Made by a program: the position numbers and the translations under genes
The notes under the pieces: model-generated
What the model was told of the DNA's origin: nothing
The model's database searches: none
What the model saw: only the letters and a program-made list of their open reading frames with translations
Part shown: one piece after another, positions 4,357 through 19,876 of the stretch
Layout of the letters: each line of letters begins with the position of its first letter
Numbering within the stretch: position 1 is the first letter of the stretch
Origin: Spirochaetota bacterium
GTDB lineage: Bacteria; Spirochaetota; UBA4802; UBA5550
DNA: 64,000 nt
Assembly: GCA_041749375.1 (NCBI GenBank)
Contig: JBGTBN010000071.1
Location: 2,297 to 66,296, forward strand
Direction of reading: 5' to 3'

Positions 4357-5169
4357 ATGAACTTCATCCGATACTCCCTCGTTGCCGTTTTTCTTGCCAT
4401 GTTCTCAATTCCTGCCTTTGCTAAAGACGCTGGCGCCGAATTCCCCTGCATCGGCATCGTGACCGCATCAAAACTGTTTTGCAGAAAAGAGCCTGATATC
4501 AAATCCGAGCAGATCGCGAAATATAATTTTTCAAATCCCATAATACTGATCAACAAGTCAAAGGTTAAGCAGAAAATCAACGACATTGAAGACTTCTGGT
4601 ACCAGGACAAGAGCACGAAAGGCTGGCTGTTCGGCGGATTTTTATTTCTTACCAAGCTCGACGAAAAGAACTTTATGAAACTCGCTTCTGACCGGATATG
4701 GTGCAATGTCGCGTGCGGAGGATTCTCCTGCTTTTATGAGTACGAGCCGTTCCTGATCGGCGATTATTACATTGCGTACACGTATCTGACGGATTATCCC
4801 CAGGAGAAAGATCCCTATGCTGGAATCATAATCGGGAAATATAAAATTGAAAACGATACGATCAGCTTCACCGGCCCGCTAAAAATCGGCGCTTATTATG
4901 ATACCGGCGAATGGATCAATGATTACGAAAAATCCAACAAAATTGAGTTTTCCGATTTCAAGGCGGCATACAAAAAAGTCAGTGATCCGGAAGGTGAGTT
5001 TTATATTGATGTGACCGCGAAATCCGTATTAAATAGAAAAGCTGCCCGCGCAAAATGCAAAGACAAGAATAATAAGGAAGAAGTATATTTCGTCGCCCAT
5101 TACCTGACGCCGATTAAACTGGCGGATTATATAACGATTGTTCCATTTGATAATTTTAAGATCAAATAG
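4357..5169 (+). CDS. Secreted protein with N-terminal SH3b-like domain
   Basis: Signal peptide (..PAFA); 'L..RKEPD..S' and 'WY....GWLFGGFL' pattern typical of spirochaetal SH3 domains; AT-rich. Confidence 0.65.
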   Translation: MNFIRYSLVAVFLAMFSIPAFAKDAGAEFPCIGIVTASKLFCRKEPDIKSEQIAKYNFSNPIILINKSKVKQKINDIEDFWYQDKSTKGWLFGGFLFLTKLDEKNFMKLASDRIWCNVACGGFSCFYEYEPFLIGDYYIAYTYLTDYPQEKDPYAGIIIGKYKIENDTISFTGPLKIGAYYDTGEWINDYEKSNKIEFSDFKAAYKKVSDPEGEFYIDVTAKSVLNRKAARAKCKDKNNKEEVYFVAHYLTPIKLADYITIVPFDNFKIK

Positions 5170-5250
5170 CCATGACGGTAATCAGCATGCACGCGCACTC
5201 TTTTTTGATTTTCTTCATCGTAACGCGCGAAACCCTGGCGGGAGAGTAGT

Positions 5251-5547
5251 ATGATAGACAATCAGAAAATATCAAAAAAACAATTCCTGCATGCTGCAGG
5301 CCTCGCGATACTCTGGACGATCGTCGCGGTCTTCATATCGTGCAGCGCTGAAACGGGAGGAACTGTGGATAAAGCAAAAACAGCATCATGCGCAACCTGC
5401 CCCATGAGGGCGCGATACGATCGCAACCCCAAAACCCTGCTCGGGCGCTTGTGGAAATGGCACATAGGCTGGTGCCCCGGCTGGAAGTCGTACCTTGCGT
5501 CTCTTCCGGAAGGCGAGCGGAAAACAGTCATGGAGCGCTACAAATAG
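5251..5547 (+). CDS. Small Cys/Trp-rich hypothetical (lipo)protein
   Basis: Hydrophobic N-terminus with FISC; CxxC..WxWHxxWCPGW C-terminus; RBS GGGAG. Confidence 0.6.
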   Translation: MIDNQKISKKQFLHAAGLAILWTIVAVFISCSAETGGTVDKAKTASCATCPMRARYDRNPKTLLGRLWKWHIGWCPGWKSYLASLPEGERKTVMERYK

Positions 5548-5805
5548 TAGAGCAATTCGGGCCCAAAACTCGAACGTTCGTGCGCTTTCGCCGGACCCTG
5601 ATGGCCGGATGATTGTACCGTGGAGTCCCTGCGCGTCCGACGGACATATGCTGATATCGATCCTTTTGTTGTACCGCCTGTCCTCTTTTTTGCTTGATAA
5701 TAATATGTGGTGTGAATAGTATTATCGCAGACAGGCGCGAACGGTCATGGCGCCGGTACCGCTGGACATGTAAGCGTATTATTATCCCTGACGGCAGGTG
5801 GTCAC

Positions 5806-5958
5806 ATGATACAATGGCTTATCGCACGGTTCACCGATGACGAGTTCAACCAGCGGTCGCGAGCGTACTACCTGGTCTGGTTCCTCCTGATCGCGATGCC
5901 CCTCATGACGATCCTCTCGGTAACCCTCTACGGATCTGCAGGGGGAAGGCACGGGTGA
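5806..5958 (+). CDS. 50-aa single-TM peptide or truncated membrane-sensor remnant
   Basis: AGGTGG RBS then MIQWLIARFTDDEFNQRSRAYYLVWFLLIAMPLMTILSVTLYGSAGGRHG*; below the ORF-track size cutoff. Confidence 0.35.
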   Translation: MIQWLIARFTDDEFNQRSRAYYLVWFLLIAMPLMTILSVTLYGSAGGRHG

Positions 5959-6029
5959 CGGTGAGAGCAGGCCCGGAGCGGAAAGAGGCATACTCGGTGC
6001 TCTGAATCAAATCGGCGGGGTGGCCTGAG

Positions 6030-7004
6030 ATGAAAATAGCACAGCTTTTTCTCATGCTTGTCGGCGTGTTGCTGATCGTATACCTTTTCGGTCCCCGCAT
6101 CAAGGCGGACATCGGCTTCGTGCCGGCGCCGGTTCCGGGAACGGCCCGGGAGGTCGAGAATTACGTCACGCGGTCCGAAGCGATGTTTAGCGACATCAGG
6201 CCGGGCGCTGAAAAAATGATCGCCTGGAGCGACCCGTCAAGAAAAAACGTGACCAGGTACTCGATCGTGTATATTCACGGCTATTCCGCCTGCCGGCAGG
6301 AGCTGGCACCGCTGGTCAATATCGTGGCAAAAAAAATCGGCGCGAACGTTTTTTACACGAGATTAAAAGGGCACATGAGGGAGCCTGACGCCCTTGCCGG
6401 TATCACCGCCGGCGACTGGCTCCGTGACGCGGGGGAAGCGTATGAGATCGGGCGGCGTATTGGTGAAAAAACGGTCATCATCGGAACATCGACAGGTGCG
6501 ACGCTTGCCGCATGGCTGCTGACACTGGGAGACACGGAAGATATCGCCGGAGCAGTCATGATCTCGCCAAATTTTGCTCCGAAGAGCATGGCTGCAAAAG
6601 CCGTGTTATGGCCATGGGGAAAACAGCTAACAGAGCTGGCATTGGGCAAATATCGCGTCTGGACCCCGAGGAACGAAGGGGAGAAAAAATACTGGAATTA
6701 CAGGCAGCCCGTGGAAGCTGTGTTTACGATGATGTCACTGGTCGGGTATGTGGACGGCCTCGACCTGTCGCGCATCGACAGGCCGGTGCTGGTTATTTAT
6801 TCGCCCGATGACACGGTTGTGGATGGCGGCAGGACCCGTAAAAAATTCAAAGAAATCGGTTCGAATAGTAAGGTCATCATCCCATTTACCGGATCCGGGG
6901 ACAAGTACCAGCATATCCTGGCGGGAGATATTCTTTCACCCGGGACCACGCTGGCTGTTGCGGACATGATAACCGTCTTCCTGGCCCAACTGGATTCGAA
7001 ATAG
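6030..7004 (+). CDS. Alpha/beta hydrolase (esterase/lysophospholipase-like), N-terminal anchor
   Basis: YIHG, GTSTG nucleophile elbow, DDTVV, QH catalytic His. Confidence 0.85.
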   Translation: MKIAQLFLMLVGVLLIVYLFGPRIKADIGFVPAPVPGTAREVENYVTRSEAMFSDIRPGAEKMIAWSDPSRKNVTRYSIVYIHGYSACRQELAPLVNIVAKKIGANVFYTRLKGHMREPDALAGITAGDWLRDAGEAYEIGRRIGEKTVIIGTSTGATLAAWLLTLGDTEDIAGAVMISPNFAPKSMAAKAVLWPWGKQLTELALGKYRVWTPRNEGEKKYWNYRQPVEAVFTMMSLVGYVDGLDLSRIDRPVLVIYSPDDTVVDGGRTRKKFKEIGSNSKVIIPFTGSGDKYQHILAGDILSPGTTLAVADMITVFLAQLDSK

Positions 7005-7110
7005 GGGATGACTTTTTATTTTCCGGGGCTATACCGATCGGTCATCAAAACAGCGATATGGCCGGTTCCTCATAGGTTTCCGGTGCACTCGTAAGGCGGA
7101 GTGAGCCGAT

Positions 7111-7142
7111 GCCTCGAAAAACGGCGATACATCCATGTATCG
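7111..7142 (-). repeat. Dispersed 32-bp repeat copy A (CsrA-like hairpin on minus strand)
   Basis: GCCTCGAAAAACGGCGATACATCCATGTATCG, 30/32 identical to 26634-26665. Confidence 0.8.
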
Positions 7143-7221
7143 TTTAGTCCCGAATGCATCGGGACTGTTTTTTAGCAAACTGCTAATTGCAAGCAGGACA
7201 TTTTGCAAAAAGGAGGCGGAG

Positions 7222-9390
7222 ATGAAGATGAATCGGGAAGATACGACTATCCAGTGTCCTTCCGGTGCGGTGACGATCGCCCGGAATGAATACGGCGTGC
7301 CGGAAATCTCCGCCGCCGACTACGAAAGCGCCTTCTACGGCCTGGGGTGGGTCCACTGCCGTGACCGGCAGCTCCAGACCATGCTTACCCGGATCCTCCT
7401 CTCCGGACGCGCAGCGGAGCTCCTGGCGGCCGATCCAGCCCTCGTGGAGATCGATCGGTTCATGCGGCGAATGAACTTCCTCCCGGACCCGGAGGCGGTC
7501 ATGGCAAAGCTCAATCCGGATGCACGACGGCAAACAGAAGCCTACGTGCTTGGTTATAACGATTCTTTCGCACGCCACGGCCGTATCTTTGAATGGAAAC
7601 TCCTGGGGTACGACCCTGAACCCTGGGAAATGAAGGATAGCCTGATCCTCGGCAAGATCATGGCCTTCCTGGGCCTGGCCGACGCCCAGGCAGCCATGGA
7701 GAAATTCCTGGTCCAGATGGTGCAAAACGACGTGGACGAGAAAAAGCTCAAGGAACTCTTCCCCTATTTATCAGAAAAAATCGATTATAAACTATTGAAG
7801 CAGGTGCGTCTCTCCGAGCCACTGGTTCCCGCGGCTATCAAATGGCTTTCGGTGGTGCCCCGGATGACGGCGAGCAACAACTGGGTCGTGGCCGGGAGCC
7901 GGACCGTTTCAGGGAAGCCCATCTTCTGCAGCGACCCTCACCTGGAGATGAACCGGATACCTGGTATATGGCAGGAAGTCGTCATGCGCATCGGCGGCGA
8001 ATCGCTCATGGGTGTGGCCCTTCCGGGCACGCCGGGCATGGCAGTGGGCCGCACGAGGCACATCGCCTGGGGACCGACTTTTTCCTTCATGGACATGATA
8101 GACTACAGGGTGGAGCACTGCCGGGACGGCAAGTACCGGCGCGGGAATAAGTGGATACCATTCAGGGTGCGGGAGGAGGTGATCCGCGTGAAGAAGGGCG
8201 CTTCCGTTGTGGAGCGGGTCTATGAAAACGACCTGGGCGTTCTGGAGGGCGATCCTGCGAAGGAGGGGCATTACCTGCTTCTCTGCTGGTCCGCGTCCAG
8301 CGGCTGTGGCGCGGGCGAATTCAACGGATTGTTCTCACTGCTGCGTGCGCAGAATGTGAAGGAGGCCATGGCCTGCATCCGTAAGCTCGAATCACTTACT
8401 TTCAACTGGGTCATTGCCGACAGTGCCGGCAACATCGGCTACCAGATGAGCGGCCGAATGTACAAAAGGCCCCGGGGCGTAAGCGGGCTTGTTCCACTGC
8501 CGGCCTGGGAAAAGAAATATGATCCACGCGGCTTCGAGGATATGAAAAAGCTCCCGGCCCGGTACAATCCTCCCGAGGGGTTCATCGTCACGGCCAACCA
8601 GGACCTGAACCGATTTGGAACGGCCAGGCCCATCAATCTCCCGATGGCGTCCTATCGGGCAGACCGCATCACGATGCTAATTAAGGAAAAAAAGAAACTC
8701 GTCGTGGATGACATGAAGGGAATTCACTATGACCTGTACTCGCTCCAGGCGAAGCGGTTCATGGACGTTATATCACCCCTCATACCCGGTACCGATAACG
8801 GGAAGATTCTAAAAAATTGGGACTGCACCTATACCGCCGACTCCAGGGGGGCCATGCTCTTTGAGTCGGTCTATCGAGAGCTGCTCCTCGCGGTCTTCGG
8901 CGACCACGGCATGGGCCGTGATGTTGTAAGCCGCGTCATGGAGGAGTCGGGCCTCTTCAATGACTATTACGGCAACTTCGATGACATACTCATGCGCTCA
9001 AAATCGTCCTGGTTCGGCGGTGCGCCCAGGGATGACATATTTCAAAAGGCAATAGCGTACGGCCTCGCTGTCACGGCAAAACCCTACGGCACAACCCGGA
9101 AGGTCGTAATGACGCACCTCCTTTTGGGAGGGAAGTTCCCGCGATTTCTCGGTTTCGATAGAGGTCCCCTGCAGCTGCCCGGGAACCGTGCCACGGTACC
9201 ACAGGGACAGATTTTCCGAAGCGCCGGCCGGGTCACTACCTTCAGCCCGTCGTTCCGGATGATTACTGATATGGCCAAAAATGAGATCCATACGAATATC
9301 GCCGGCGGTGTCTCGGACCGGCGCTTTTCGAAATGGTACATGTCTGACCTGAAGAACTGGTTACGGGGAGTCTACAAGGTACTGAAGTAG
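7222..9390 (+). CDS. Penicillin acylase family (Ntn-hydrolase, S45)
   Basis: RNEYGVP, DRQLQ, ASNNWVV autocatalytic Ser, DPHL, TANQ; start chosen at ATG 7222 after AGGAGG. Confidence 0.9.
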   Translation: MKMNREDTTIQCPSGAVTIARNEYGVPEISAADYESAFYGLGWVHCRDRQLQTMLTRILLSGRAAELLAADPALVEIDRFMRRMNFLPDPEAVMAKLNPDARRQTEAYVLGYNDSFARHGRIFEWKLLGYDPEPWEMKDSLILGKIMAFLGLADAQAAMEKFLVQMVQNDVDEKKLKELFPYLSEKIDYKLLKQVRLSEPLVPAAIKWLSVVPRMTASNNWVVAGSRTVSGKPIFCSDPHLEMNRIPGIWQEVVMRIGGESLMGVALPGTPGMAVGRTRHIAWGPTFSFMDMIDYRVEHCRDGKYRRGNKWIPFRVREEVIRVKKGASVVERVYENDLGVLEGDPAKEGHYLLLCWSASSGCGAGEFNGLFSLLRAQNVKEAMACIRKLESLTFNWVIADSAGNIGYQMSGRMYKRPRGVSGLVPLPAWEKKYDPRGFEDMKKLPARYNPPEGFIVTANQDLNRFGTARPINLPMASYRADRITMLIKEKKKLVVDDMKGIHYDLYSLQAKRFMDVISPLIPGTDNGKILKNWDCTYTADSRGAMLFESVYRELLLAVFGDHGMGRDVVSRVMEESGLFNDYYGNFDDILMRSKSSWFGGAPRDDIFQKAIAYGLAVTAKPYGTTRKVVMTHLLLGGKFPRFLGFDRGPLQLPGNRATVPQGQIFRSAGRVTTFSPSFRMITDMAKNEIHTNIAGGVSDRRFSKWYMSDLKNWLRGVYKVLK

Positions 9391-10270: not shown

Positions 10271-11851
10271 ATGAAGCGTATACCGTTTCTCGCAATGATT
10301 GTCGGGGCAGTGGCAATGGTCTGTGCGTTGTTTTGTTACTCGGTCAATTACGCGGGCAGTTCACCGGTTAGCGGATTTGCAGATATACATATTCACCAGA
10401 TGGCAGAATACGCGTACGCCGGCGCGTGGTTCCACGGAAGCCATAAGGGCGCTGAAAGCGTGGCCCTCAAAGCATGCACCGGTGGAAGCATTTTCGGCGG
10501 GGATCATGCCAGGACAAAGTTCGGGGTCCTGAACGAGTTCCTCGGAAAGTTACCGGGATCCGACGGAGACACGGGCTGGCATTTTTACAAGAAGAACGGG
10601 TTTTCAGCATACACCGGATGGCCGCGTTGGGACACCATCGCGCACCAGCAGGTCTGGGAGGGAGATCTGAAAAAGGCCCATGATAACGGACTCAATCTTT
10701 ACGTAATGTCCGCAGTTGACTTTAAGAATCTATGTGACGCTATGCCGACCGCCAACAGGAAACCGGGGCTTGTCTGTAACGAGATGTCCAGCGTGGACGT
10801 CCAGCTGCAGGCGGCCGTCAATTTCGCCGCAGGGAGGGACTGGGTAAAAATTGCCCGATCACCCGATGAGGCGCGGGCGATCATCAATTCCGGCCGGCTT
10901 GCGATGATCCTCGCAATCGAGGTCACCAGGCTGTTTGACGACGATGACTGGTCGGACCGGCTTGATTACTACTATGACCATTTCGGTGTCCGTTCGGTCC
11001 AGTTCGCGCACCAGCTCGACAACAGGTTCGGCGGCGTTGCACCGCACCACTGGATATTCAAGTTTTTCAAGGTGCTCAGCGACATGGGCCAGGGCGACCT
11101 GAGCCCGGGCTTCGACCTTGACGATGACGGAAAGAACACGCTCGGGCTGACCGGCGAGGGAAAGGAGCTCGGCAGGGCGATGATGGAAAAGAACATGATC
11201 ATCGATATCTCGCATATGTCCGAGCGGGCCGTGCGGGACCTTTATGAGATCGCCAGGGATATGGATTATTACCCGCTGGTGCTTTCCCACGGGCACCTGC
11301 GCTCCATCATGATGAATGAGAAGCAGAAAGAGGAGAAAACCACCCCCGATTACATCATACGGATGATCAGGGAGACAGGGGGCATGATAGGCCTGCGGAC
11401 GGGAGCAGAGCAGGTTAAAACCTATTCGCGCTCGGGAGTGGCCAATGACTGCGACGGTTCCACCAAGTCCTTCGCGCAGGCCTACCAGTACGGCGTCAGG
11501 GGCCTAAGGGTAGATATCGCGTTCGCGAGCGATTTCAACGGCTTTATCCAGCAGCTCAGGCCGCGCTTCGGCGGTGAGAATGAGACCTGCGGGGCTTCCG
11601 GCAATGCAGCGACAGTTAAAGCGCAGAGGTTACGGCAGACCGGCCGCCTGGGGACCGCCCTGGACTACCGGGGGTTCGGCAACATAGGGCTCGAGGGAGA
11701 CATTATCAGTGAACTCAGGAATTTCGGCGTGAACACGTCCGGTCTTGAAAGCTCCGCCGAGACTTTTTTGCAGGTGTGGGAGCGCTGCTACAATGACGAT
11801 CGAATCGGGCCGCTCGATACCAGTGACATGGACACAAGCGGGATTTATTGA
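10271..11851 (+). CDS. Secreted membrane-dipeptidase-like (M19) amidohydrolase
   Basis: Signal peptide; DIHIH, AIE, HQLDN, GLTGEG, IDISH, SHG, SDFNG. Confidence 0.8.
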   Translation: MKRIPFLAMIVGAVAMVCALFCYSVNYAGSSPVSGFADIHIHQMAEYAYAGAWFHGSHKGAESVALKACTGGSIFGGDHARTKFGVLNEFLGKLPGSDGDTGWHFYKKNGFSAYTGWPRWDTIAHQQVWEGDLKKAHDNGLNLYVMSAVDFKNLCDAMPTANRKPGLVCNEMSSVDVQLQAAVNFAAGRDWVKIARSPDEARAIINSGRLAMILAIEVTRLFDDDDWSDRLDYYYDHFGVRSVQFAHQLDNRFGGVAPHHWIFKFFKVLSDMGQGDLSPGFDLDDDGKNTLGLTGEGKELGRAMMEKNMIIDISHMSERAVRDLYEIARDMDYYPLVLSHGHLRSIMMNEKQKEEKTTPDYIIRMIRETGGMIGLRTGAEQVKTYSRSGVANDCDGSTKSFAQAYQYGVRGLRVDIAFASDFNGFIQQLRPRFGGENETCGASGNAATVKAQRLRQTGRLGTALDYRGFGNIGLEGDIISELRNFGVNTSGLESSAETFLQVWERCYNDDRIGPLDTSDMDTSGIY

Positions 11852-11943: not shown

Positions 11944-12300
11944 TCAGTTTTTATCCTCCATGATGCAGGTACCGTTGAAGATCGAGCCTGATTCGATCGT
12001 CAGCTCCGGCGCGACGATATCTCCGGTGGTCTTGCTCTTCTTGAACAGCTCGATTTTCTTCAAGGCCTTGATCTTGCCGCTGAACACGCCGCTGATATTT
12101 ACCTCGGTGGCCTTCACGTCGGCGCTGACCTTGGCTTCGCGTCCCACGATGAGCTGGCCGTCCGTTTCGATCCTCCCCTCGAAGGAGCCTTTTATCTTCA
12201 GGGAATTCTTGAATTTAAGGCTTCCCTTGAACGCTATGTCATCGGCTATGACCGTGTCTATCTTGTTTTCGTCCTCTAGTGTTTCTTTCGGATCTGTCAT
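11944..12300 (-). CDS. Bactofilin (polymer-forming cytoskeletal protein)
   Basis: TVIA..FKG..LKIKG.FEG.I..G.L.VG..V.A beta-helix pattern, GSIFNGTCIM; start at ATG 12300 with GGAGAGG RBS. Confidence 0.9.
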   Translation of the reverse strand: MTDPKETLEDENKIDTVIADDIAFKGSLKFKNSLKIKGSFEGRIETDGQLIVGREAKVSADVKATEVNISGVFSGKIKALKKIELFKKSKTTGDIVAPELTIESGSIFNGTCIMEDKN

Positions 12301-12509
12301 CGTCCTCTCCATGTTGAATAGTAGCCGCTGTGACTCTTCCAAAAAGCCGGCGGGTACGGGCATATGCGGAACCTTATAATACTGCCGGTAAAATGTCAAT
12401 AAAAAACAGCGGGCACTGTGCGAACGGCAGGCATGCCGGGCCATGAAAAATAATCTTGAATATTATTGTGCCCGGTGCTATCGTTGGCGGGGCAGGATAG
12501 GACTTGATT

Positions 12510-12845
12510 ATGGAAGAGATTTTGAAAAAAGCGGAAGAGCTGGGGCGGTTGCTCAGGGAGACCGATATATATCGGGACTTCCAGGATGCCTCCGGGAGGC
12601 TTCATGCGGACGCTGACGCGGAAAAGCTCCTCGATGATTACATCAAGGTATCGAAGTATATCCGTGAACGGCAGGAGATGGGCGATATCATCGAGAAATT
12701 CGAGATCGAGAATATCAAGAGCATGTCATCGCTGGTTTCCGACAACGAGATGATCATGCAGTACCTCAGGGCGCAGCAGGAATACCTCGACCTGATACTA
12801 CTGATCCAGAAAGAGCTCGAAGACATCGGTCCTGACGGATGCTGA
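12510..12845 (+). CDS. YlbF/YmcA (Com_YlbF) family regulator
   Basis: KAEELGRLL.ETD.Y..F..A, ..N..I..YL.AQ helical pattern. Confidence 0.7.
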   Translation: MEEILKKAEELGRLLRETDIYRDFQDASGRLHADADAEKLLDDYIKVSKYIRERQEMGDIIEKFEIENIKSMSSLVSDNEMIMQYLRAQQEYLDLILLIQKELEDIGPDGC

Positions 12846-12900: not shown

Positions 12901-12929
12901 TTGACTAATTATTCCTGTATGGTTATTCT
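12901..12929 (+). promoter_or_regulatory. Putative sigma70 promoter of the SPFH/DUF4178/speE operon
   Basis: TTGACT-17 nt-TATTCT in AT-rich intergenic DNA. Confidence 0.55.
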
Positions 12930-13052: not shown

Positions 13053-13580
13053 ATGCAACCAAATTTGGACAACGTGAAGAAGAAGATCCAGGAGAACAGG
13101 GACCTGGTGAGTAAAATTACCGCCAGGTTTCCCGGCTACTCCGGGTACGTAGAAAAGGCGGAGACCTACGACGCCGATACAATCGTCCGCGGTCTGCTGG
13201 CGGACCGGGTGGGATCGTTCAAGGCCGCCGTCAACGAGAAGTCCTCTGACCTTGCGCAAAAGAAGGAGCGGGGACCGCTTCCGGACCTCGACGCCCTGAG
13301 CCTGAAGATGGAGACCGTCATCAAGAAGTGCCGGCACGCCGATTTCGGAAAGGCCGCGGCTCTCTCGAGCATGAAGCTTTCCGACGATGACGTGAACAGG
13401 CTCCTCGAATATGACTGGCGGCTCATCTCATCGCTTGACGAGTTGGAAACGGCATTGTCCGGGATCAAAGCCGCGTCTGCCGAAAGCCTGGGCCCGGTCA
13501 TCGGCGGGATATCCGATAAACTGAAAGAATTCGAAAAAAAATTCGATGAAAGAAAAAATGTGTTACTGGAGGTGTTGTAA
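13053..13580 (+). CDS. Conserved helical hypothetical protein (SPFH-operon associated)
   Basis: FPGYSGY.EK...DAD..VR and L.EYD motifs; abuts the SPFH gene (TAA-ATG). Confidence 0.75.
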   Translation: MQPNLDNVKKKIQENRDLVSKITARFPGYSGYVEKAETYDADTIVRGLLADRVGSFKAAVNEKSSDLAQKKERGPLPDLDALSLKMETVIKKCRHADFGKAAALSSMKLSDDDVNRLLEYDWRLISSLDELETALSGIKAASAESLGPVIGGISDKLKEFEKKFDERKNVLLEVL

Positions 13581-14702
13581 ATGGCCCTGATAGATGTAGT
13601 CGAATGGAAAAATAAACCGGGTGAAGTAATGTACCGATTCCAGGAGGGAGCCATATCCCTTGGTGCCCAGCTGATCGTAATGGAAAACCAGGAGGCCATC
13701 TTTTTCAGGGAAGGCCGCGCCCTTGACAGCTTCGGTCCGGGACGACATACCCTCAAGTCGGGCAACATCCCCATACTTGAAAAATTGATAAACATTCCCT
13801 TTGGCGGCAAATCGCCGTTCCCGGCTGAAGTATACTTTATCAACAAGACCGAGATCCCCAACCTGAAGTGGGGCACCAAGACGCCAATCGATCTCCTGGA
13901 CCCGCTCTATAACATCGCGGTCCCGATCCGGGCGTTCGGAAATTTTTCGATAAAAATAAAGGACACCAAGTCCTTTCTCACCATGGCCATCGGGACATGG
14001 CAGGCCTACACCACCGAGGCGATTGAAACAACGCTCCGCGACCAGGTCATACTGCCGAAGCTCTCCGACCTCATCACCGAGCTCATGGAAAAGGAAAAGA
14101 TAACCATACTGAAGCTCGCGCCGTTCTATGACGAGATCGGCAGCTACGGGAAGGCGAAGATACTGGATGATTTCGCAAGTTACGGGCTTGAGCTGGTCAG
14201 GTTCGCGGTCGAGTCGATCAACGTGCCACAGGAGGACGAATCGGTCAAGCGGCTCAAGAAGGCGCTGGCGGACAAGGCCGAGATCGGCATCATAGGCCAG
14301 GACGACTACAAGATGAAGCGGACCTTCGACACGATGGAAAAGGCTGCCGACGGCGACGGTATGGCCGGAGGTATGATGGGTGCCGGCATGGGCGTGGGTA
14401 TGGGCCAGCAGATGGCCGGCATGATGGGATCGGCCATGGGCGGCGCAACCGGCCAGGGCGCTAAAGTTGCATGTCCCCACTGCAATGCGCAGAACCCGGC
14501 AGGGGCGAAATTCTGCTCCTCGTGCGGGAAGGAGATCGTCTCCGGCATGGCATGCCCCAAGTGCAAGGCGAAGTTCCCGGCCAATTCGAAGTTCTGTCCC
14601 GAGTGCGGGGCGAACCTCGAGGGCGCCGCATGCACCAAGTGCGGGGCCAGGCTGCAGCCGGGCGCAAAGTTCTGTCCCGAGTGCGGGGCGCAGCAGGGAT
14701 AA
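13581..14702 (+). CDS. SPFH/Band-7-like protein (YdjI type) with C-terminal zinc ribbons
   Basis: GAQLIV.ENQEAIF, FGPGRHTL...NIP, KWGT, GMGVGMG linker, three CxxC..KFCxxCG ribbons. Confidence 0.9.
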   Translation: MALIDVVEWKNKPGEVMYRFQEGAISLGAQLIVMENQEAIFFREGRALDSFGPGRHTLKSGNIPILEKLINIPFGGKSPFPAEVYFINKTEIPNLKWGTKTPIDLLDPLYNIAVPIRAFGNFSIKIKDTKSFLTMAIGTWQAYTTEAIETTLRDQVILPKLSDLITELMEKEKITILKLAPFYDEIGSYGKAKILDDFASYGLELVRFAVESINVPQEDESVKRLKKALADKAEIGIIGQDDYKMKRTFDTMEKAADGDGMAGGMMGAGMGVGMGQQMAGMMGSAMGGATGQGAKVACPHCNAQNPAGAKFCSSCGKEIVSGMACPKCKAKFPANSKFCPECGANLEGAACTKCGARLQPGAKFCPECGAQQG

Positions 14703-14708
14703 GCAGCA

Positions 14709-15308
14709 ATGTCGGCAACGCAATGCCCCTCGTGCGGGGCGCCGGTCGCGGTCAGGAACAGGTTCAGCAAGGTTCTTGTCTGTTCCTATTGCGGCACGCA
14801 CCTCCGCCTGTCGGGAGACGGGTTCGATGCGACCGGGAAGCACCCGAAGCTTGCGGAGTTCCCGTCCCTGTTCAAGGTGGGGGGCACGGGTGCAATCCTG
14901 GGCAAGCCGTTCACGGCCCTGGGCAGAATGCGCTATAACTATCCGGGCGGGCATTTCGACGAGTGGTTCATGGAATATGACGGCGGCACTGCCTGGGTAA
15001 CCGAGGACGAGGGGACAGTATCCCTCTATACCGAGGTCGAGGAAGCGCTTGAGTTCCCGGACATCACCACGGTCCGCGCCGGCCAGAACGTGATGATCGG
15101 CCAGAAAAAAGTGATGGTCAAGGAAAAGGGGAGTGCAGAGGTTGCCGGCGCGGAAGGTGAGCTCTCCTTCTATATCGAGCCTGGCACAAAGCTGACCTAC
15201 ATGGACGGTGTTTCTGACGGCAGGAAGGTTTCCATCGAAGCGACCGAGAACGAGATCGAGCTGTTCTCCGGCAGGCAGCTCCTGGCGAGGGACATTGTGG
15301 TAAGCTGA
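14709..15308 (+). CDS. Zn-ribbon + DUF4178-like protein
   Basis: CPSCGA..CSYCG; GR.RY.Y..G..DEW..W..EDEG; AEGEL. Confidence 0.8.
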   Translation: MSATQCPSCGAPVAVRNRFSKVLVCSYCGTHLRLSGDGFDATGKHPKLAEFPSLFKVGGTGAILGKPFTALGRMRYNYPGGHFDEWFMEYDGGTAWVTEDEGTVSLYTEVEEALEFPDITTVRAGQNVMIGQKKVMVKEKGSAEVAGAEGELSFYIEPGTKLTYMDGVSDGRKVSIEATENEIELFSGRQLLARDIVVS

Positions 15309-15338
15309 TAGCTCCGCAAACGTTTGCGGAGCTATCAG
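15305..15338. repeat. Perfect 34-bp palindrome (REP-like)
   Basis: CTGATAGCTCCGCAAAC|GTTTGCGGAGCTATCAG; degenerate copy at 20256-20285. Confidence 0.85.
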
Positions 15339-15419
15339 GGCGCCTCGCAATGCCCATAAGTGGTTACTGTCACTTCTTATGATTAAGAATGCAATACCTG
15401 GAATCGAATCGAGGACCCG

Positions 15420-16826
15420 ATGGGTACTGACAACCCCGAATTAAAAGCTCTGAAATGCTCCAAGTGCGGGGGTGATCTGGTTAAAAGCTACCGGACGGAG
15501 TATGATGACGAAGAGGAAGAGAACGTCAGCATACCGACGGCGAAATGCTCCGCCTGCGGGCAGGAATACGACCGGAAAACCGAGGAATATTACGGGGTAT
15601 TTGCGGACGACCTGTCATCGGACAGGGACGCTTCGGTCTTCAAGCTCGGGATAAAGGGCACGTTGAAGGGTGTCGAGTACGAGATCATCGGGCGCATACG
15701 ATATCAGGACGAGGACGAGTGGGAAAAGTCGACGTGGGACGAGTGGTTTGCCGTTTCCGCGGACGGGGCTTATCACTATTTCGTCGAAGAGGACGGCGAG
15801 GTCCACTCGTACGAGGATTACACGCCGCAGTCGATCGACCTGGAATCAGACCCGGGCGCGATAGAGTTCGATGGGAAAAAGATCTCCCGTGACGAGGCCT
15901 ACATCGGACGCATCGTGTTCGCGGAGGGTGAGCTCCCCTGGAAGCCGGAGATCGGCGAACCCGCCACGATGTACGACTTCAAGAAGGACGGCGCAAAGTA
16001 CACCATCGAGCATTCCGAGGGCGAGGTCTCGATCACCCGGGGCGAAAAGATATCATACAACGACATCGTCAACTCGTTCGGCGGGGAGAAGGAGAAGGGC
16101 CAGTACCAGGAGACCATGACGATGCGTACGAACTACCGTCGCCGTGCCTTCGTATACCTGGCCGGGTGCGCCGTCACCTTCATCCTGGCGGCAGTGAGCT
16201 GCTTTAATTCCTCACCGGTCGACGGAATCATGAAAAACAGGACCGATCTTGCCACGAATGCCGTCGTCAGCGAGAACGGCCAGAACATGTACCAGAGCGA
16301 AGTCCTGTTAGGCCCGTTTGAGCTGAAGAAGGGTGAGGCGCTCTATAACGCGCAGGTGTCGGTCAACGAGTCGGTGCAGAAACTGAGCCTGGAATGGCAG
16401 TCGTTCAGGCTCCTGCTGGTCCCGGCTGACCGGCTCCAGAAGGCGGCGAACGGCCGGATGACACCGGCCGTCCTCGGGGACGTGTTCGACGATGTGGACG
16501 CCCTCAGGGAGCCGGTGGAGTGTTATTCCATGAGCGGCGATTTCTGGGACGAGGAGGGGCACGACGACGAGGGCTACTGGCACGAGAGCGACCTTTCCGT
16601 TGACGACGATTTCGTGCTCGAAAAGCCGGGCAGCTACTACGCTTTCCTCGAGCTTACCAGCCAGAAGCCCCGGTCCGCGCTGGCGGTCGAGGTGAAGCTG
16701 GAGCGGACCTCGAGCTATCGGTATTATATCATCATCATCGCGGTTCTGGCCGCCCTCTGGTTTTACAACAGGGCGAAGTCCCGGTCCTATAACGCGATGT
16801 CGTTCTCTATGTCAAACGAGGGGTAG
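15420..16826 (+). CDS. Zn-ribbon + DUF4178-like membrane protein
   Basis: CSKCG..CSACG; GRIRY..WDEW..EEDG; AEGELPW; two TM segments flanking an acidic extracytoplasmic domain (DDEGYWHE). Confidence 0.8.
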   Translation: MGTDNPELKALKCSKCGGDLVKSYRTEYDDEEEENVSIPTAKCSACGQEYDRKTEEYYGVFADDLSSDRDASVFKLGIKGTLKGVEYEIIGRIRYQDEDEWEKSTWDEWFAVSADGAYHYFVEEDGEVHSYEDYTPQSIDLESDPGAIEFDGKKISRDEAYIGRIVFAEGELPWKPEIGEPATMYDFKKDGAKYTIEHSEGEVSITRGEKISYNDIVNSFGGEKEKGQYQETMTMRTNYRRRAFVYLAGCAVTFILAAVSCFNSSPVDGIMKNRTDLATNAVVSENGQNMYQSEVLLGPFELKKGEALYNAQVSVNESVQKLSLEWQSFRLLLVPADRLQKAANGRMTPAVLGDVFDDVDALREPVECYSMSGDFWDEEGHDDEGYWHESDLSVDDDFVLEKPGSYYAFLELTSQKPRSALAVEVKLERTSSYRYYIIIIAVLAALWFYNRAKSRSYNAMSFSMSNEG

Positions 16827-16831
16827 CGATC

Positions 16832-17017
16832 ATGATACGGAGCATTCTCATCGCGGCGCTAATTATGGGAGGCGGGTTCGCGATGTCCACCTTCAATGTC
16901 GGGTATTCGACCGCCGGGGAGAAATACATCTCCAAACACCGGGACGAGCGAAAAACGCTCAGGCCCGGGTATTATTACGGCCGGGCCGGGTACGGCGGCT
17001 TCAGGGGAGGGAAATGA
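16832..17017 (+). CDS. Small exported/membrane peptide with Tyr/Gly-rich GGK tail
   Basis: Hydrophobic N-terminus; ends YYYGRAGYGGFRGGK; tightly coupled in the operon. Confidence 0.7.
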   Translation: MIRSILIAALIMGGGFAMSTFNVGYSTAGEKYISKHRDERKTLRPGYYYGRAGYGGFRGGK

Positions 17018-17095
17018 TCATCTGCCTGCTGCGCCGGCAGGACACTGATACGGGCCTTACTGTCACGCATTATAATTCGAGGAGGACACACGATT

Positions 17096-17398
17096 ATGGA
17101 TTGGGGAACCCTGTTGCACGGAATATTGGATACGGCCATTTACTCTCTCGTCGGGATCATCATGATGGGTATCGGCATATTCCTGGTCATTCTATTCACG
17201 CCTTTTTCAGTTAAGAAGGAGATCGAGGACGACCAGAACACGTCCCTGGGGATCATTATCGGCGCCGTCATTCTGGGCATCGCCATAATCATCGCGGGTG
17301 TGGTCTCCTCACCGAGCTCGGATTACAAGAGGAAAGACCGCACTGCGAAGATCGAGCAGAAGGCCGACGTAAAAGACTCAGACGCGGCCGGCAAATAG
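17096..17398 (+). CDS. DUF350 family membrane protein
   Basis: Two TMs around TPF..KEI..DQN..LGI; GAGGAGG RBS. Confidence 0.88.
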   Translation: MDWGTLLHGILDTAIYSLVGIIMMGIGIFLVILFTPFSVKKEIEDDQNTSLGIIIGAVILGIAIIIAGVVSSPSSDYKRKDRTAKIEQKADVKDSDAAGK

Positions 17399-17407
17399 CA
17401 CCCCGTC

Positions 17408-18934
17408 GTGAAGCGTGAAATGAGAGTCTCGGAACAGAGAATATTCTTGTTCTCTGTTTTTTTTCTATCCATGTGCGGAATCATATACGAGCTGGTATTG
17501 GGGTCGCTGGCGACATACCTGCTGGGGAATCCCGTGCAGCAATATTCCATAACGATCGGATTTTTTTTGAGCTCAATGGGCATCGGCTCTTACCTGTCGC
17601 GCTTTCTCACGAAGAACATACTCAGGAATTTTATCGCCATAGAGGCGTCACTCGGCTTCGTCGGCGGGGTCTCGGTCATTGTCCTGAGCTATCTCTTCTC
17701 ATTTTCTTCCACCTATTACATGCTCCATGTATTCTTCCTGGTAATAATCGGGACGCTCGTGGGCCTGGAGATACCGCTGGTGACGCGAGTATTAAAGAGA
17801 TACGGCGCGCTCAAGGACATCCTCTCCAACGTGCTTACGCTTGATTTCATTGGCGGTCTGGCCGGCTCCCTCCTGTTCCCGCTCGTTTTATTCCCGATCC
17901 TGGGCCGCATGCTTACCAGCATCCTGGTTGGAGTGGTCAACATCTGCGTGGCCATGCTGATCATCGTACGGCTTGACTATGACGGGAAACGGAAGACCGA
18001 CCTTGTCGGGCCGGCAGTACTCCTGCTGTTCCTGGCGCTGTTCACCGGCGCTTCGGGCCAGATCGACAACGTGCTGCAGAAGCGCCTGTATTACGACGAC
18101 ATTGTCTTCACCCGGAGGTCGCATTTCCAGGAGATCGTGCTGACCAGGAATGATAATGATTTCCGGCTCTACCTGGACGGATCGCTCCAGTTCTCATCCA
18201 TCGATGAATACCGTTACCACGAGATGCTCGCGTTTCCGCCGCTCCTGCTGTCGCCAGGAATCCGGAAGAATGTGCTCGTGCTGGGTGGCGGGGACGGCCT
18301 CGCGGTGCGCGAGCTGCTCAAATACCCGGGCGTTGCGATCACCCTGGTCGAGCTCGACCCGGCGATGATCGATCTCGCGCGGCACGATTCATCCCTGAAG
18401 ATGCTGAACGGCGATTCCCTGAGCGATCCGCGCGTCAGGATTGTTGTCGGCGACGCGTATGCCTTTTTATTGAAGTGCACGGAGAAGTATGAAGCGATCA
18501 TCGCCGATTTTCCCGATCCCCACGATGAGACGATCTCGAAGCTTTACACGGTCGAGTTCTTCGGAATCGCCCGAAACGCCCTGGCACGGGGCGGCGTCTT
18601 CGTCACGCAGTCAACGTCGCCCTTTTTCGCCCGCGATGCCTTCTGGTGCATAAACGGCACGATGAAGAAAGCGTTCCGCTTCGTGGTCCCCTACCACGTG
18701 TACGTGCCGTCATTCGGCGACTGGGGCTTCAATATGGCCTTTGACGAGCCGCGCGATGTCGCCATGATCCCGGACGCGCTGCCCGGCTTCAGGTACTATT
18801 CACGCGCCGCCTTCTCACAGGCCATGCACTTCCCGGCGGATTCATCCGTCGTGGAAACAGAGGTGAACACGTTTAACAGGCCGGTCCTGTATACCTACTA
18901 CCTGAAGGGCTGGAAGTACTATACCGACATGTAA
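17408..18934 (+). CDS. speE: Membrane-anchored polyamine aminopropyltransferase (spermidine synthase-like)
   Basis: About 7 N-terminal TMs (YEL..G, GLEIPL), LYLDG.LQF, YHEML, LGGGDG, VELDP, DFPDP, VPSFGDWGF. Confidence 0.9.
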   Translation: MKREMRVSEQRIFLFSVFFLSMCGIIYELVLGSLATYLLGNPVQQYSITIGFFLSSMGIGSYLSRFLTKNILRNFIAIEASLGFVGGVSVIVLSYLFSFSSTYYMLHVFFLVIIGTLVGLEIPLVTRVLKRYGALKDILSNVLTLDFIGGLAGSLLFPLVLFPILGRMLTSILVGVVNICVAMLIIVRLDYDGKRKTDLVGPAVLLLFLALFTGASGQIDNVLQKRLYYDDIVFTRRSHFQEIVLTRNDNDFRLYLDGSLQFSSIDEYRYHEMLAFPPLLLSPGIRKNVLVLGGGDGLAVRELLKYPGVAITLVELDPAMIDLARHDSSLKMLNGDSLSDPRVRIVVGDAYAFLLKCTEKYEAIIADFPDPHDETISKLYTVEFFGIARNALARGGVFVTQSTSPFFARDAFWCINGTMKKAFRFVVPYHVYVPSFGDWGFNMAFDEPRDVAMIPDALPGFRYYSRAAFSQAMHFPADSSVVETEVNTFNRPVLYTYYLKGWKYYTDM

Positions 18935-18958: not shown

Positions 18959-19876
18959 ATGAAGAAAATAAAGGAATTCGATTACGACCTCAAGCAGCTT
19001 CGGTCCTTTCTCGAGGTGCTGAACGAAAACAGCTTCACCCGGGCGTCCAGGAAGCTCCGCGTGGGACAGGCCACGGTCAGCCATCATATCGGGCAGCTTG
19101 AAAAAATCCTCGGCGTTACGCTGATCAACCGCACGGCGCACGAGATCGCCGTAACCGAAGAGGGGAAGATCTTCAGGGTCTACTGTGAAAAGGTATTCAA
19201 GGACATCGAAGCCCTCCAGGCCGAGATGGCCGCGGGCGAGCCCGCCGGCGTCACCACGATCGCGGCGAGCACCATCCCCTCCGCCTATTTGCTGCCAGGG
19301 GTCCTGGCCGCTGCGAAGAAAAAGTTTCCCGGCATCACGTACCGCCTGTCCGTCGCGGACAGCCGTGAGGCCGTGGAGATGGTGAAAGACGGCGGCGCGG
19401 ATGCCGGCATCGTCGGGACCGAATACCGGCACCCGTCGCTCGTATTCACGTCCGTGTGCAATGATGAGATCGTACTGATCGCCCCGCGTGGATTTCCAGC
19501 CCGGGCGAAGGTCCGGGACCTTGCGTCAATGCCCTTCATCATCCGCGAGCAGGGGTCCGGTACCAGGAGGGCGTGCGAAGAGGCGCTGGCGGGTCATGGC
19601 ATCCAGCCGTCGGCTCTCCAGGCGGTCATGGAATGCTCGACGACCGAGGCGATCAAGGAGTCGGTCGCAGCGGGTCTGGGCGTCTCGTTCGTTTCACGGC
19701 TCGCCATAGCGCGTGAGATTAAAGCGCGTGCTTTCCACGTGATAGACATTGACGGGCTGACTGTTAAACGGTCGTTTTTTTTCGTACATTCCGGCGTCCG
19801 GCGCATTCAGCGGCCGTCCACGCTTCTTCTTGAGTTGCTTGTTGAGTGGTATTCTGCGGGCGGGTCAAAGAACTGA
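18959..19876 (+). CDS. LysR family regulator (CysL-like/selenium-associated subtype)
   Basis: SFTRAS..L..Q..VS.HI..LE HTH; ASTIP..Y.LP, REQGSGTR, EAIKESV.AGLG. Confidence 0.88.
   Translation: MKKIKEFDYDLKQLRSFLEVLNENSFTRASRKLRVGQATVSHHIGQLEKILGVTLINRTAHEIAVTEEGKIFRVYCEKVFKDIEALQAEMAAGEPAGVTTIAASTIPSAYLLPGVLAAAKKKFPGITYRLSVADSREAVEMVKDGGADAGIVGTEYRHPSLVFTSVCNDEIVLIAPRGFPARAKVRDLASMPFIIREQGSGTRRACEEALAGHGIQPSALQAVMECSTTEAIKESVAAGLGVSFVSRLAIAREIKARAFHVIDIDGLTVKRSFFFVHSGVRRIQRPSTLLLELLVEWYSAGGSKN

Follow-up and report, generated by a model that had tools for sequence, protein, structure and literature searches.

What does a membrane-fused aminopropyltransferase modify when it is encoded in one operon with an SPFH protein, two DUF4178 proteins, a DUF350 protein and a small peptide that ends in lysine? 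The question is raised by seven genes (g1 to g7) in a 64,000-nt stretch of a Spirochaetota genome (GenBank assembly GCA_041749375.1, contig JBGTBN010000071.1, positions 2,297 to 66,296 of the forward strand), hereafter the window. An earlier sequence-only reading had interpreted them as a candidate polyamine-modification system, in which an SPFH microdomain would let the enzyme aminopropylate a dedicated acceptor as part of an envelope-stress or phage response. Of this interpretation, the gene content and the co-occurrence of the genes held, the acceptor fits the evidence while its chemistry is unproven, and the phage role found no support. The operon consists of two modules, a portable head (g1 and g2) docked on a widespread core (g3 to g7). 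We tentatively propose that the core transfers aminopropyl groups from decarboxylated S-adenosylmethionine (dcSAM) at the membrane, probably at its outer face, to a cassette-specific acceptor, for which the terminal lysine of g5 is the leading candidate, and that g1 and the SPFH protein g2 act as a scaffolding head.

Conservation and modular composition of the operon

The sequence-only reading had taken co-occurrence of the genes in other genomes as its own touchstone, and the seven-gene order is kept in nine of eleven related genome loci, the remaining two being cut by contig ends. These loci come from metagenome-assembled genomes of uncultured Spirochaetota and 'Leptospirales', across which the identity of g4 ranges from 49 to 89%. 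The same order was recovered in 19 metagenome loci that extend far enough upstream, and the remaining spirochaete-like loci are partial but consistent. At the level of the family, g1 and the seven-transmembrane (7TM) enzyme g7 occur together in 25 genomes and are jointly missing from 7, with no discordant case among the 32, though such co-occurrence counts overstate independence because the genomes compared are kin.

The two modules also occur apart from each other. A profile search found the g1 family in 85 of 401 Spirochaetota genomes, and among 18 further spirochaete loci six hold the full seven genes, nine only g1 with an SPFH gene, and three just g1, in one case on a contig of 1.7 kb. Pfam scans of seven of the nine stand-alone pairs showed the tail of their Band_7_1 protein to be SHOCT in four and a zinc ribbon in three; in one genome carrying only the g1-SPFH pair, DUF4178 was found nowhere. 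Two Leptospira-like genomes have, at a separate locus, a fused protein with two DUF4178 domains and a transmembrane (TM) segment, a peptide of 64-65 aa and the 7TM enzyme. Distant metagenome cassettes (enzyme identity 37-44%) are made up of two DUF4178 genes, the peptide, sometimes DUF350, and the enzyme, and these stand among unrelated neighbours with no SPFH head; two of them are accompanied by a divergent DUF350 gene plus DUF2617 and one by an ATP-grasp glutathionylspermidine (GSP) synthase plus SpeD. At loci L133 and L143 the core lies next to XisH/XisI-type or CinA-type genes, with a divergently transcribed 4-TM DUF350 gene and DUF2617. A DUF350 and DUF2617 pair is among the arrangements listed for actinobacterial variants (Ravi et al. 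2024, PMC11237479).

Beyond spirochaetes, the core recurs in Alpha- and Betaproteobacteria, Gemmatimonadota and metagenomes, often together with SpeD and an amine oxidase exported by the twin-arginine translocation (Tat) pathway. A tblastn search of plasmids with g7 returned 193 records. On plasmid p1 of Novosphingobium sp. ES2-1, the complete g2-g7 order is reproduced by an SPFH protein (Band_7_1 with SHOCT), DUF4178 proteins of 219 and 420 aa, a 48-aa open reading frame (ORF), a 69-aa DUF350 protein and the 7TM enzyme, followed by an FAD amine oxidase and SpeD, two enzymes without a counterpart in the window operon. The same set is found in divergent arrangement in Ralstonia wenshanensis (plasmid p56D2) and Burkholderia stagnalis, and core versions are present in Ensifer, Tritonibacter and Gemmatirosa (Gemmatimonadota). 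A variant headed by TelA is carried by the Alteromonas mediterranea plasmid pAMCP48-600 (locus L070, 7932-15169), where the order is 7TM enzyme, SpeD, a 169-aa helical membrane protein, TelA, DUF4178, a 510-aa lipoprotein and a 289-aa DUF350 protein.

A small membrane peptide with an invariant terminal lysine

The peptide g5 has no match to any Pfam or NCBIfam family, and its status as a gene was assessed from the way in which it varies. Among ten orthologues of the same length, differences at codon positions 1, 2 and 3 number 490, 164 and 1311, and the differing codons are synonymous 1084 times versus 511 non-synonymous in the g5 frame, as compared with approximately 100 versus approximately 1430 in the other two frames. 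Since the excess of third-position and synonymous changes is seen in this frame only, g5 is a real coding gene, as had been claimed. Its product has one N-terminal hydrophobic helix followed by a basic tail rich in Gly, Tyr and Arg, and the version in the window has no lipobox Cys.

The terminal residue of this peptide does not vary. All 15 genome orthologues end in R-x-G-K and all 38 metagenome orthologues in K, preceded by G in 37 of them. A terminal K was likewise present at each of the 16 distant metagenome loci with DUF4178 upstream of the enzyme (ca. 11 distinct sequences), where the peptide was picked by position as the ORF directly after the long DUF4178 gene and has an N-terminal TM helix in all 16. 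Six plasmid peptides end in GGHK, GSHK, PSHK, ESGK, NRVK and RHGK, those of the two Leptospira-like genomes both in YSGGK, and the counterpart at this position in Alteromonas, the 510-aa lipoprotein, in SSGK. No exception was encountered at the peptide position in any locus examined, against a background of 5.5% of 6267 ORFs in the same loci that end in K. A further motif, (S/T)-V-R-E-N-P-G-x-Y-R-S, is common to the Leptospira-like and Gemmatirosa peptides.

A lipobox Cys is found in three versions of the peptide, namely those of Burkholderia, Alteromonas and the metagenome locus L114. The latter, spirochaete-like, seemingly duplicates part of the core (approximately 5000-8500) in the order peptide, DUF350, second long DUF4178, second DUF350 and enzyme, and the peptide adjoining the enzyme is the lipobox form, ending in FRHGK. 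In the ESM Atlas, the clusters nearest to g5 are annotated as 'hypothetical protein' (Spirochaetota, 117 members, score 0.93; Myxococcota, 239 members, score 0.91) and are taken as leads only.

The aminopropyltransferase and its predicted orientation

The last gene of the operon, g7, matches the membrane-fused polyamine aminopropyltransferase model NF002956 (PRK03612) with 573.6 bits (cut-off 472) along model positions 13-520 of 522, and Spermine_synth (PF01564) with 126.4 bits. Its GGGDG and DFPDP motifs, described as intact in the sequence-only reading, are indeed so (residues 293-297 and 367-371), are invariant in 15 of 15 orthologues and align with those of the closest solved relative, thermospermine synthase 6bq2 (E 1e-38).

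Seven hydrophobic segments lie within residues 12-219, ahead of the catalytic domain. When 61 full-length enzymes were aligned, the N-terminus and the loops 2-3, 4-5 and 6-7 carried on average 12.2 Lys and Arg residues, compared with 0.77 on loops 1-2, 3-4 and 5-6, and the bias was present in 61 of 61 enzymes. By the positive-inside rule, this bias puts the domain that follows TM7 outside the cytoplasm, and the catalytic domain of g7 is therefore most likely periplasmic. Such an outer-face placement is in keeping with the lipoprotein forms of the peptide, the twin-arginine oxidases and the precedent of the fungal NHMT (see below); the amine oxidase that adjoins the cassette has twin-arginine signals in all three proteobacterial clusters read (SRRSFL; TRRQVL with a lipobox; DRRTFI with a lipobox). 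Our literature searches found nothing on the topology or function of Rv2601/Rv2600/Rv2597 and nothing further on clusters of membrane aminopropyltransferases.

DUF4178 and DUF350 proteins of the core

Both g3 and g4 match DUF4178 (PF13785), with 44.3 and 57.7 bits respectively (gathering cut-off 25), assignments that were confirmed by a separate genome search with the family, and each has an N-terminal CxxC...CxxC ribbon (residues 6-28 in g3). Sequence searches of the PDB for DUF4178 gave solely zinc-ribbon matches, including the amino-group carrier protein LysW at E 0.07. Weak matches of these ribbons to the LysW globular domain were also seen at the N-terminus of g3 (14709-14810) and in locus L069 (6268-6400), with Pfam E-values of 2.4e-4 and 3.3e-3 and with PDB entry 3wwl at E 0.07; they are probably generic ribbon similarity.

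In the AlphaFold2 model of g4 (pLDDT 88.5), helices 223-262 and 433-456 flank strands spanning 264-431, i.e., an ectodomain of ca. 170 aa, modelled as a beta-sandwich, between two TM helices. The residues invariant in 43 sequences (D374, W376, D377, E378, G380, D382, G385, W387, H388 and E389) make up an acidic/aromatic motif of this ectodomain. Foldseek with the whole model returned beta-sandwich matches of low score alone (TM-score 0.1-0.18), VIA gave weak jelly-roll matches for the ectodomain (Eph-receptor and carbohydrate-binding module, Z 7.2-7.8), and the TM hairpin matched unrelated hairpins by VIA. The modelled architecture would fit a trans-membrane role, with ribbon and DUF4178 domain in the cytoplasm and the ectodomain on the outer side.

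The DUF350 match of g6 (PF03994) reaches 57 bits (cut-off 26) and covers only profile positions 2-70 of 133, and because this is the first half of the profile, the protein is regarded as a 2-TM half unit. In an alignment of 12 sequences (the window and 11 orthologues), the acidic loop KKEIEDDQN is conserved, and the C-terminal tail is basic.

The head pair: g1 and the SPFH protein g2

The start of g2 directly abuts the stop codon of g1 (gap of 0 nt), and g2 is the sole Band_7_1 (PF13421) gene found in the genome by profile search, scoring 165.7 bits against a gathering cut-off of 24. Its three Zn_Ribbon_1 stretches occupy residues 298-316, 325-343 and 351-369; a Pfam scan of the window proteins found neither SHOCT nor a TM segment in g2, and no PDB relative was recovered by sequence search. 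The 'SPFH microdomain' of the sequence-only reading draws its plausibility solely from the analogy to B. subtilis YdjI/SamI.

No Pfam family matches g1. The NCBIfam model LIMLP_15305 (NF047596) aligns to it from end to end (residues 8-172 on model positions 7-174 of 175) with 57.7 bits, under the equivalog cut-off of 210, which rules out that g1 is a LIMLP_15305 equivalog and makes it a distant relative only. Its AlphaFold2 model (pLDDT 84.2) is all-helical, a compact five-helix bundle with helices at residues 5-25, 35-69, 76-95, 111-140 and 143-174. As regards the ESCRT-III-like long helical hairpin fold of PspA/IM30, Foldseek against the PDB found nothing at E<=0.001 (best E 0.06), and the best VIA hits, IncA and other helical bundles with Z up to 9.8, are beneath the meaningful level for helical proteins. 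Owing to the lack of a Pfam match and to fold matches that are only generically helical, the idea that g1 stands in for PspA was dropped as a specific assignment; PspA itself (PF04012) was not found in a profile search of the whole genome (91.65% complete). A relation of g1 to the helical 169-aa protein encoded ahead of TelA in Alteromonas was considered as well, and none was shown (BLASTP E 0.48).

A profile search with g1 gave 1289 cluster representatives at E<=1e-3, and in none of 19 representatives scanned with Pfam does a family cover the g1 domain. In one family member, P0316 (339 aa), a helical domain of the g1 type (residues 3-170) is naturally fused to DUF4178 (202-330), which ties the head and core modules together, while P0345 and P0371 have an N-terminal zinc ribbon ahead of the g1-like domain. 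Another relative, P0366, has a long tail rich in Gly, Ser and Thr.

Supply of the aminopropyl donor

A stand-alone SpeD, encoded among unrelated genes on another contig of the window's genome (contig C5; locus L074, 5956-6351), passes the AdoMetDC equivalog TIGR03330 with 126.6 versus 75.65 bits. Approximately 2.7 kb away lies an IF-2B family gene (L074, 9008-10036) that resembles methylthioribose-1-phosphate isomerase, and such an enzyme would recycle methylthioadenosine, the by-product of aminopropyl transfer.

Across related genomes SpeD varies together with the operon. Within the genus, a strong SpeD match was obtained in nine of nine operon carriers and in none of four non-carriers; within the family, 23 of the 25 carriers have a strong match, one a weak match only and one none, as compared with six of seven non-carriers without SpeD and one with a weak match only. 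At the level of the order, the 7TM enzyme scores above cut-off in 42 of 91 genomes, and 15 of these 42 also encode a canonical SpeE (ca. 300 aa), which in the carrier genomes adjoins SpeD genes. The 7TM enzyme is thus tied to dcSAM supply, dispensable within the genus and often not the sole aminopropyltransferase.

In the window's genome itself, at 91.65% completeness, neither a canonical soluble SpeE nor a carboxyspermidine decarboxylase (nspC) route was found. The only other SpeE-like ORF (477 aa; contig C77, locus L075, 5330-6763) matches PRK03612 with 91 bits, far under the cut-off, and has as neighbours a radical-SAM gene and a Memo/AMMECR1 fusion. The same weak PRK03612 match is shown by ORFs of ca. 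740-890 aa in many genomes of the order.

Proposed function and rival explanations

In the mechanism that we put forward, for which we infer the donor, the membrane side, the acceptor, all physical contacts and the role in stress, the unlinked SpeD would make dcSAM and g7 would take it as donor. The periplasm-facing domain of g7 would then transfer the aminopropyl group to a cassette-specific acceptor and not serve a general spermidine supply, and g5, anchored in the membrane, would offer the best acceptor candidate in the epsilon-amine of its invariant C-terminal Lys. Within the core, g4 would connect both sides of the membrane through its cytoplasmic zinc-ribbon/DUF4178 part and its acidic beta-sandwich ectodomain, with g6 as a small membrane partner. 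The SPFH protein g2 could be recruited to the membrane by integral partners, probably the zinc-ribbon DUF4178 proteins, in the way known for B. subtilis YdjI/SamI, and the cytoplasmic pair of g1 and g2 would organise the core, or gate it, when the membrane is under stress. A dedicated acceptor, as the sequence-only reading had suggested, fits the invariant lysine of the peptide, the predicted outward orientation of the catalytic domain and the co-existence of the 7TM enzyme with canonical SpeE in carrier genomes.

A number of observations weigh against this proposal, several of them in favour of its main rival, namely that g7 is an ordinary membrane-tethered synthase of spermidine or another free polyamine, whose neighbours sense or buffer the membrane state or the polyamine level without any of them being a substrate. 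The enzyme lacks no residue expected of an aminopropyltransferase that uses diamines, both Asp of DFPDP being present, and its catalytic and diamine-binding motifs are all intact; its closest solved relatives make free polyamines, and the NCBIfam family is named after polyamine aminopropyltransferases. It is, moreover, the only full-scoring aminopropyltransferase found in the window's genome, and given that neither SpeE nor the carboxyspermidine route was found there, free spermidine, if made, must come from g7. SpeD tracks the operon within the genus just as a plain two-enzyme spermidine pathway would. The predicted topology is drawn from a single source, the positive-inside rule, and TM2 is weakly hydrophobic (mean Kyte-Doolittle value 1.09); an outward domain would need dcSAM to be exported, for which we know of no mechanism, and the spirochaete peptide has a very basic tail, uncommon in segments that are translocated. 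To these are added the kinship of the compared genomes and, as regards the SPFH microdomain, the fact that the head module is optional, most distant cassettes being without it. Aminopropylation of the peptide by g7 is unproven. Still, an ordinary synthase does not account well for the carrier genomes that already have canonical SpeE beside SpeD genes, for the linkage of the enzyme across phyla to DUF4178 and an anchored peptide ending in Lys, for a charge bias that puts the catalytic domain outside the cytoplasm in every enzyme aligned, or for a pathway that is dispensable within one genus, being absent from 4 of 13 genomes, and on balance we consider it somewhat unlikely.

A small anchored peptide with an invariant C-terminal Lys, which takes lipoprotein form in three lineages, might also be a tether of the kind of Braun's lipoprotein, cross-linked to peptidoglycan by an L,D-transpeptidase, in which case the enzyme would modify a lipid, the wall or a free surface amine. 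Braun's lipoprotein is linked to the wall via its C-terminal Lys. In most versions of the peptide, however, an uncleaved helix is the inner-membrane anchor and a lipobox is lacking, the tails are Gly/Ser-rich and look disordered with no coiled coil, none of the loci read has a linked L,D-transpeptidase gene, and the strict linkage is to the aminopropyltransferase and not to wall enzymes, for which reasons we think such a tether very unlikely. More improbable still, to the point that we give it hardly any weight, is a role in defence against phage or in abortive infection, with envelope damage as the trigger. SPFH and PspA-type modules do respond to membrane damage, and the cassette is patchy within the genus and located on large plasmids in some bacteria, but PADLOC 2.0 detected no defence system (six of the seven proteins had no match, and g7 matched only the methyltransferase-fold model mad2, with 61.9 bits), the cassette contains no nuclease, protease or pore-forming effector, the operon is flanked by housekeeping genes, and no phage genes were nearby in the loci read. 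The phage response of the sequence-only reading is therefore unsupported.

The proposal of a dedicated acceptor can also be taken further, to a version that we regard as unlikely. In it, g7 would be a protein-modifying aminopropyltransferase acting outside the cytoplasm, with a 7-TM domain that delivers dcSAM across the membrane. The outer face of the inner membrane would come to carry its product, a polycation that is tethered and resembles spermidine. In proteobacteria the Tat-exported oxidase would process or remove the group, and DUF4178 and DUF350, together with SPFH, PspA or TelA heads, would couple this switch to the membrane state. PRK03612-type enzymes, DUF4178 and DUF350 are widely distributed, the loci read spanning spirochaetes, proteobacteria and Gemmatimonadota; to our knowledge, none of the three has a demonstrated function. 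Were this version correct, the transfer would amount to a novel post-translational modification and give all three their first function; a modified peptide would also be a new envelope-stress output, and with an unmodified peptide the cassettes would be localised polyamine factories. The comparison narrows the link of polyamines to membrane stress to one question, i.e., whether the terminal Lys of a peptide of ca. 60 residues gains 57 Da, and on which side of the membrane.

Relation to described systems

Cassettes of this type are already in print (Ravi et al. 2024, mSystems, PMC11237479), and the one in the window is not categorically new. That in silico study describes an operon of '7TM spermine/spermidine synthase - YjfL(DUF350) - Ctha_1186 lipoprotein - DUF4178' with a CesT/Tir-PspA head, linked to the phage shock protein (PSP) system, and proposes that membrane dynamics are linked with 'aminopropylation of other substrates' (PMC11237479). 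Our literature search on DUF4178 found no work besides it. The window shares with this PSP-linked operon the 7TM-fused aminopropyltransferase, DUF350 and DUF4178, and probably also the small exported or anchored protein; g5 stands at the position expected for the Ctha_1186 lipoprotein, lacks the lipobox Cys in the window's version, and peptides of its type may be that protein. The two differ in that the published DUF350 protein has 8 TM helices whereas g6 is a 2-TM half unit, in that the window has two DUF4178 genes, one of them membrane-spanning, and in the head, where the window has neither CesT/Tir nor PspA but g1 and a Band_7_1 SPFH protein with zinc ribbons. The assignment of the window to the CesT/Tir-PspA-headed operons was rejected, since PspA is present neither in the operon nor in the genome and g1 is all-helical. 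CesT has an alpha/beta fold.

A second variant of the same study is free of PspA and combines Band-7, 2TM and SHOCT with AdoMet decarboxylase and polyamine oxidase (PMC11237479). Examples are Novosphingobium plasmid p1 and Ralstonia wenshanensis plasmid p56D2. The representative on plasmid p1 has a gene order identical to g2-g7 and an SPFH protein of the same family (PF13421), yet it has a SHOCT tail and both SpeD and the oxidase in the operon, whereas in the window the tail consists of zinc ribbons, g1 comes first, SpeD is unlinked and no oxidase is present. As the sequence-only reading had noted, PspA, SpeD and an FAD oxidase are all missing among the seven genes. With g2 devoid of SHOCT and TM segments, SpeD on another contig and no oxidase, the window was not assigned to this variant either.

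The pspA-ydjGHI (samGHI) operon of B. subtilis offers a parallel for the head, as its cytosolic SPFH protein needs integral membrane partners (Scholz et al. 2021, PMC8581546; Baur et al. 2026, PMC13713150). This SPFH protein is described as band-7 with a C-terminal zinc ribbon and YdjG as a membrane protein bearing a zinc ribbon (Ravi et al., PMC11237479). The likeness to g2 lies in an SPFH protein with zinc ribbon, and PF13421 was found in the B. subtilis control genome; it holds at family level, and the B. subtilis operon differs by having PspA and the TPM-domain protein YdjH, neither of which the window has, and by having no aminopropyltransferase. In E. coli, the yjfIJKLMC-type operon, with PspA-like YjfJ, DUF350 protein YjfL and ATP-grasp YjfC, makes up a third group of Ravi et al. 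(PMC11237479). It resembles the window in coupling DUF350 to a polyamine-type enzyme and a membrane-stress protein, and is unlike it in having an ATP-grasp ligase in place of the aminopropyltransferase, no DUF4178 and other lipoproteins (DUF1190).

For the enzyme, the closest parallel in described architecture is the fungal NHMT/AN4663, with 7 TM helices and an 'ectodomain' of spermidine-synthase fold, which methylates the N-terminal His of secreted lytic polysaccharide monooxygenases and has Ile where aminopropyltransferases have Asp/Glu in GxG(D/E)G (bioRxiv 10.1101/2022.10.03.510680). The likeness, 7 TM helices followed by a spermidine-synthase-fold domain, is one of architecture. NHMT is a eukaryotic methyltransferase with Ile, whereas g7 retains GGGDG, and since it keeps the acidic residue of this motif, it is expected to use dcSAM.

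Compared with these systems, the version in the window is distinct in four ways, i.e., the g1 family as partner of the SPFH protein, zinc ribbons in place of SHOCT, an unlinked SpeD and the lack of an oxidase. What is added here is the charge bias of 61 enzymes, the g1-DUF4178 fusion, the counts of head and core, the co-variation with SpeD and the count of terminal lysines against background. The SPFH head with its helical partner is an independent, portable pair, which adds to the view that SPFH, PspA and TelA scaffolds can replace one another as front ends.

Layout of the operon and its flanks

All seven co-oriented ORFs claimed at 13053-18934 were confirmed on the forward strand at these positions (Table 1), and the gaps between them, from g1 to g7, are 0, 6, 111, 5, 78 and 9 nt. 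The single promoter-like site reported ahead of g1 exists, but with five such sites in the region against 4.1 +/- 1.9 in shuffles, its presence is at chance level.

Table 1 Features of the operon and its flanks (window coordinates in nt)
Feature	Position	Strand	Basis or remark
Bactofilin gene	11944-12444	-	Upstream flank of operon, opposite strand to YlbF-like gene
YlbF/YmcA-like gene	12504-12845	+	PF06133, 56 bits; directly 5' of operon
Promoter-like site TTGACT-17-TATTCT	12901-12929	+	9/12 matches; upstream of g1
g1, 175 aa, five-helix protein, unclassified family	13053-13580	+	First gene of head pair
g2, 373 aa, soluble SPFH protein	13581-14702	+	Band_7_1, Gly/Met-rich linker, three C-terminal zinc ribbons
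g2, Band_7_1 domain	13632-14243	+	PF13421
g2, zinc ribbons	14472-14687	+	Zn_Ribbon_1
g3, 199 aa, soluble zinc-ribbon and DUF4178 protein	14709-15308	+	PF13785
g4, 468 aa, zinc ribbon/DUF4178, TM, beta-sandwich ectodomain, TM	15420-16826	+	PF13785 and AlphaFold2 model
g4, predicted ectodomain	16209-16712	+	AlphaFold2 model
g5, 61-aa single-TM peptide, basic tail ending R-G-G-K	16832-17017	+	Coding signature and orthologues
g5, terminal Lys codon	17012-17014	+	
g6, 100 aa, DUF350 half unit, 2 TM helices	17096-17398	+	PF03994
g7, 508 aa, 7-TM domain fused to aminopropyltransferase domain	17408-18934	+	NF002956, PF01564
g7, 7-TM domain	17441-18064	+	
g7, aminopropyltransferase domain	18086-18745	+	
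g7, GGGDG	18284-18298	+	
g7, DFPDP	18506-18520	+	
LysR-type regulator gene	18959-19876	+	NF040786, 251.9 bits vs cut-off 250; 3' of operon

Further upstream, a 526-aa protein (10271-11851, forward strand) has a hydrophobic stretch at its N-terminus, matches part of the M19 membrane-dipeptidase domain (82 bits) and lacks an NCBIfam name. Nine of 11 related genome loci, and many metagenome loci, keep the YlbF-like gene upstream of the operon; L012 (whose contig begins within the operon), L013 and all distant cassettes lack it. We consider it a conserved neighbour in close relatives and at most a candidate member of the system. On the other side, 8 of the 11 genome loci have the LysR gene downstream of the operon; it was not found in L012 or L013, and L003 ends short of its position. 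The LysR product barely passes the 'selenium metabolism-associated' equivalog NF040786 and is a possible regulator of the operon.

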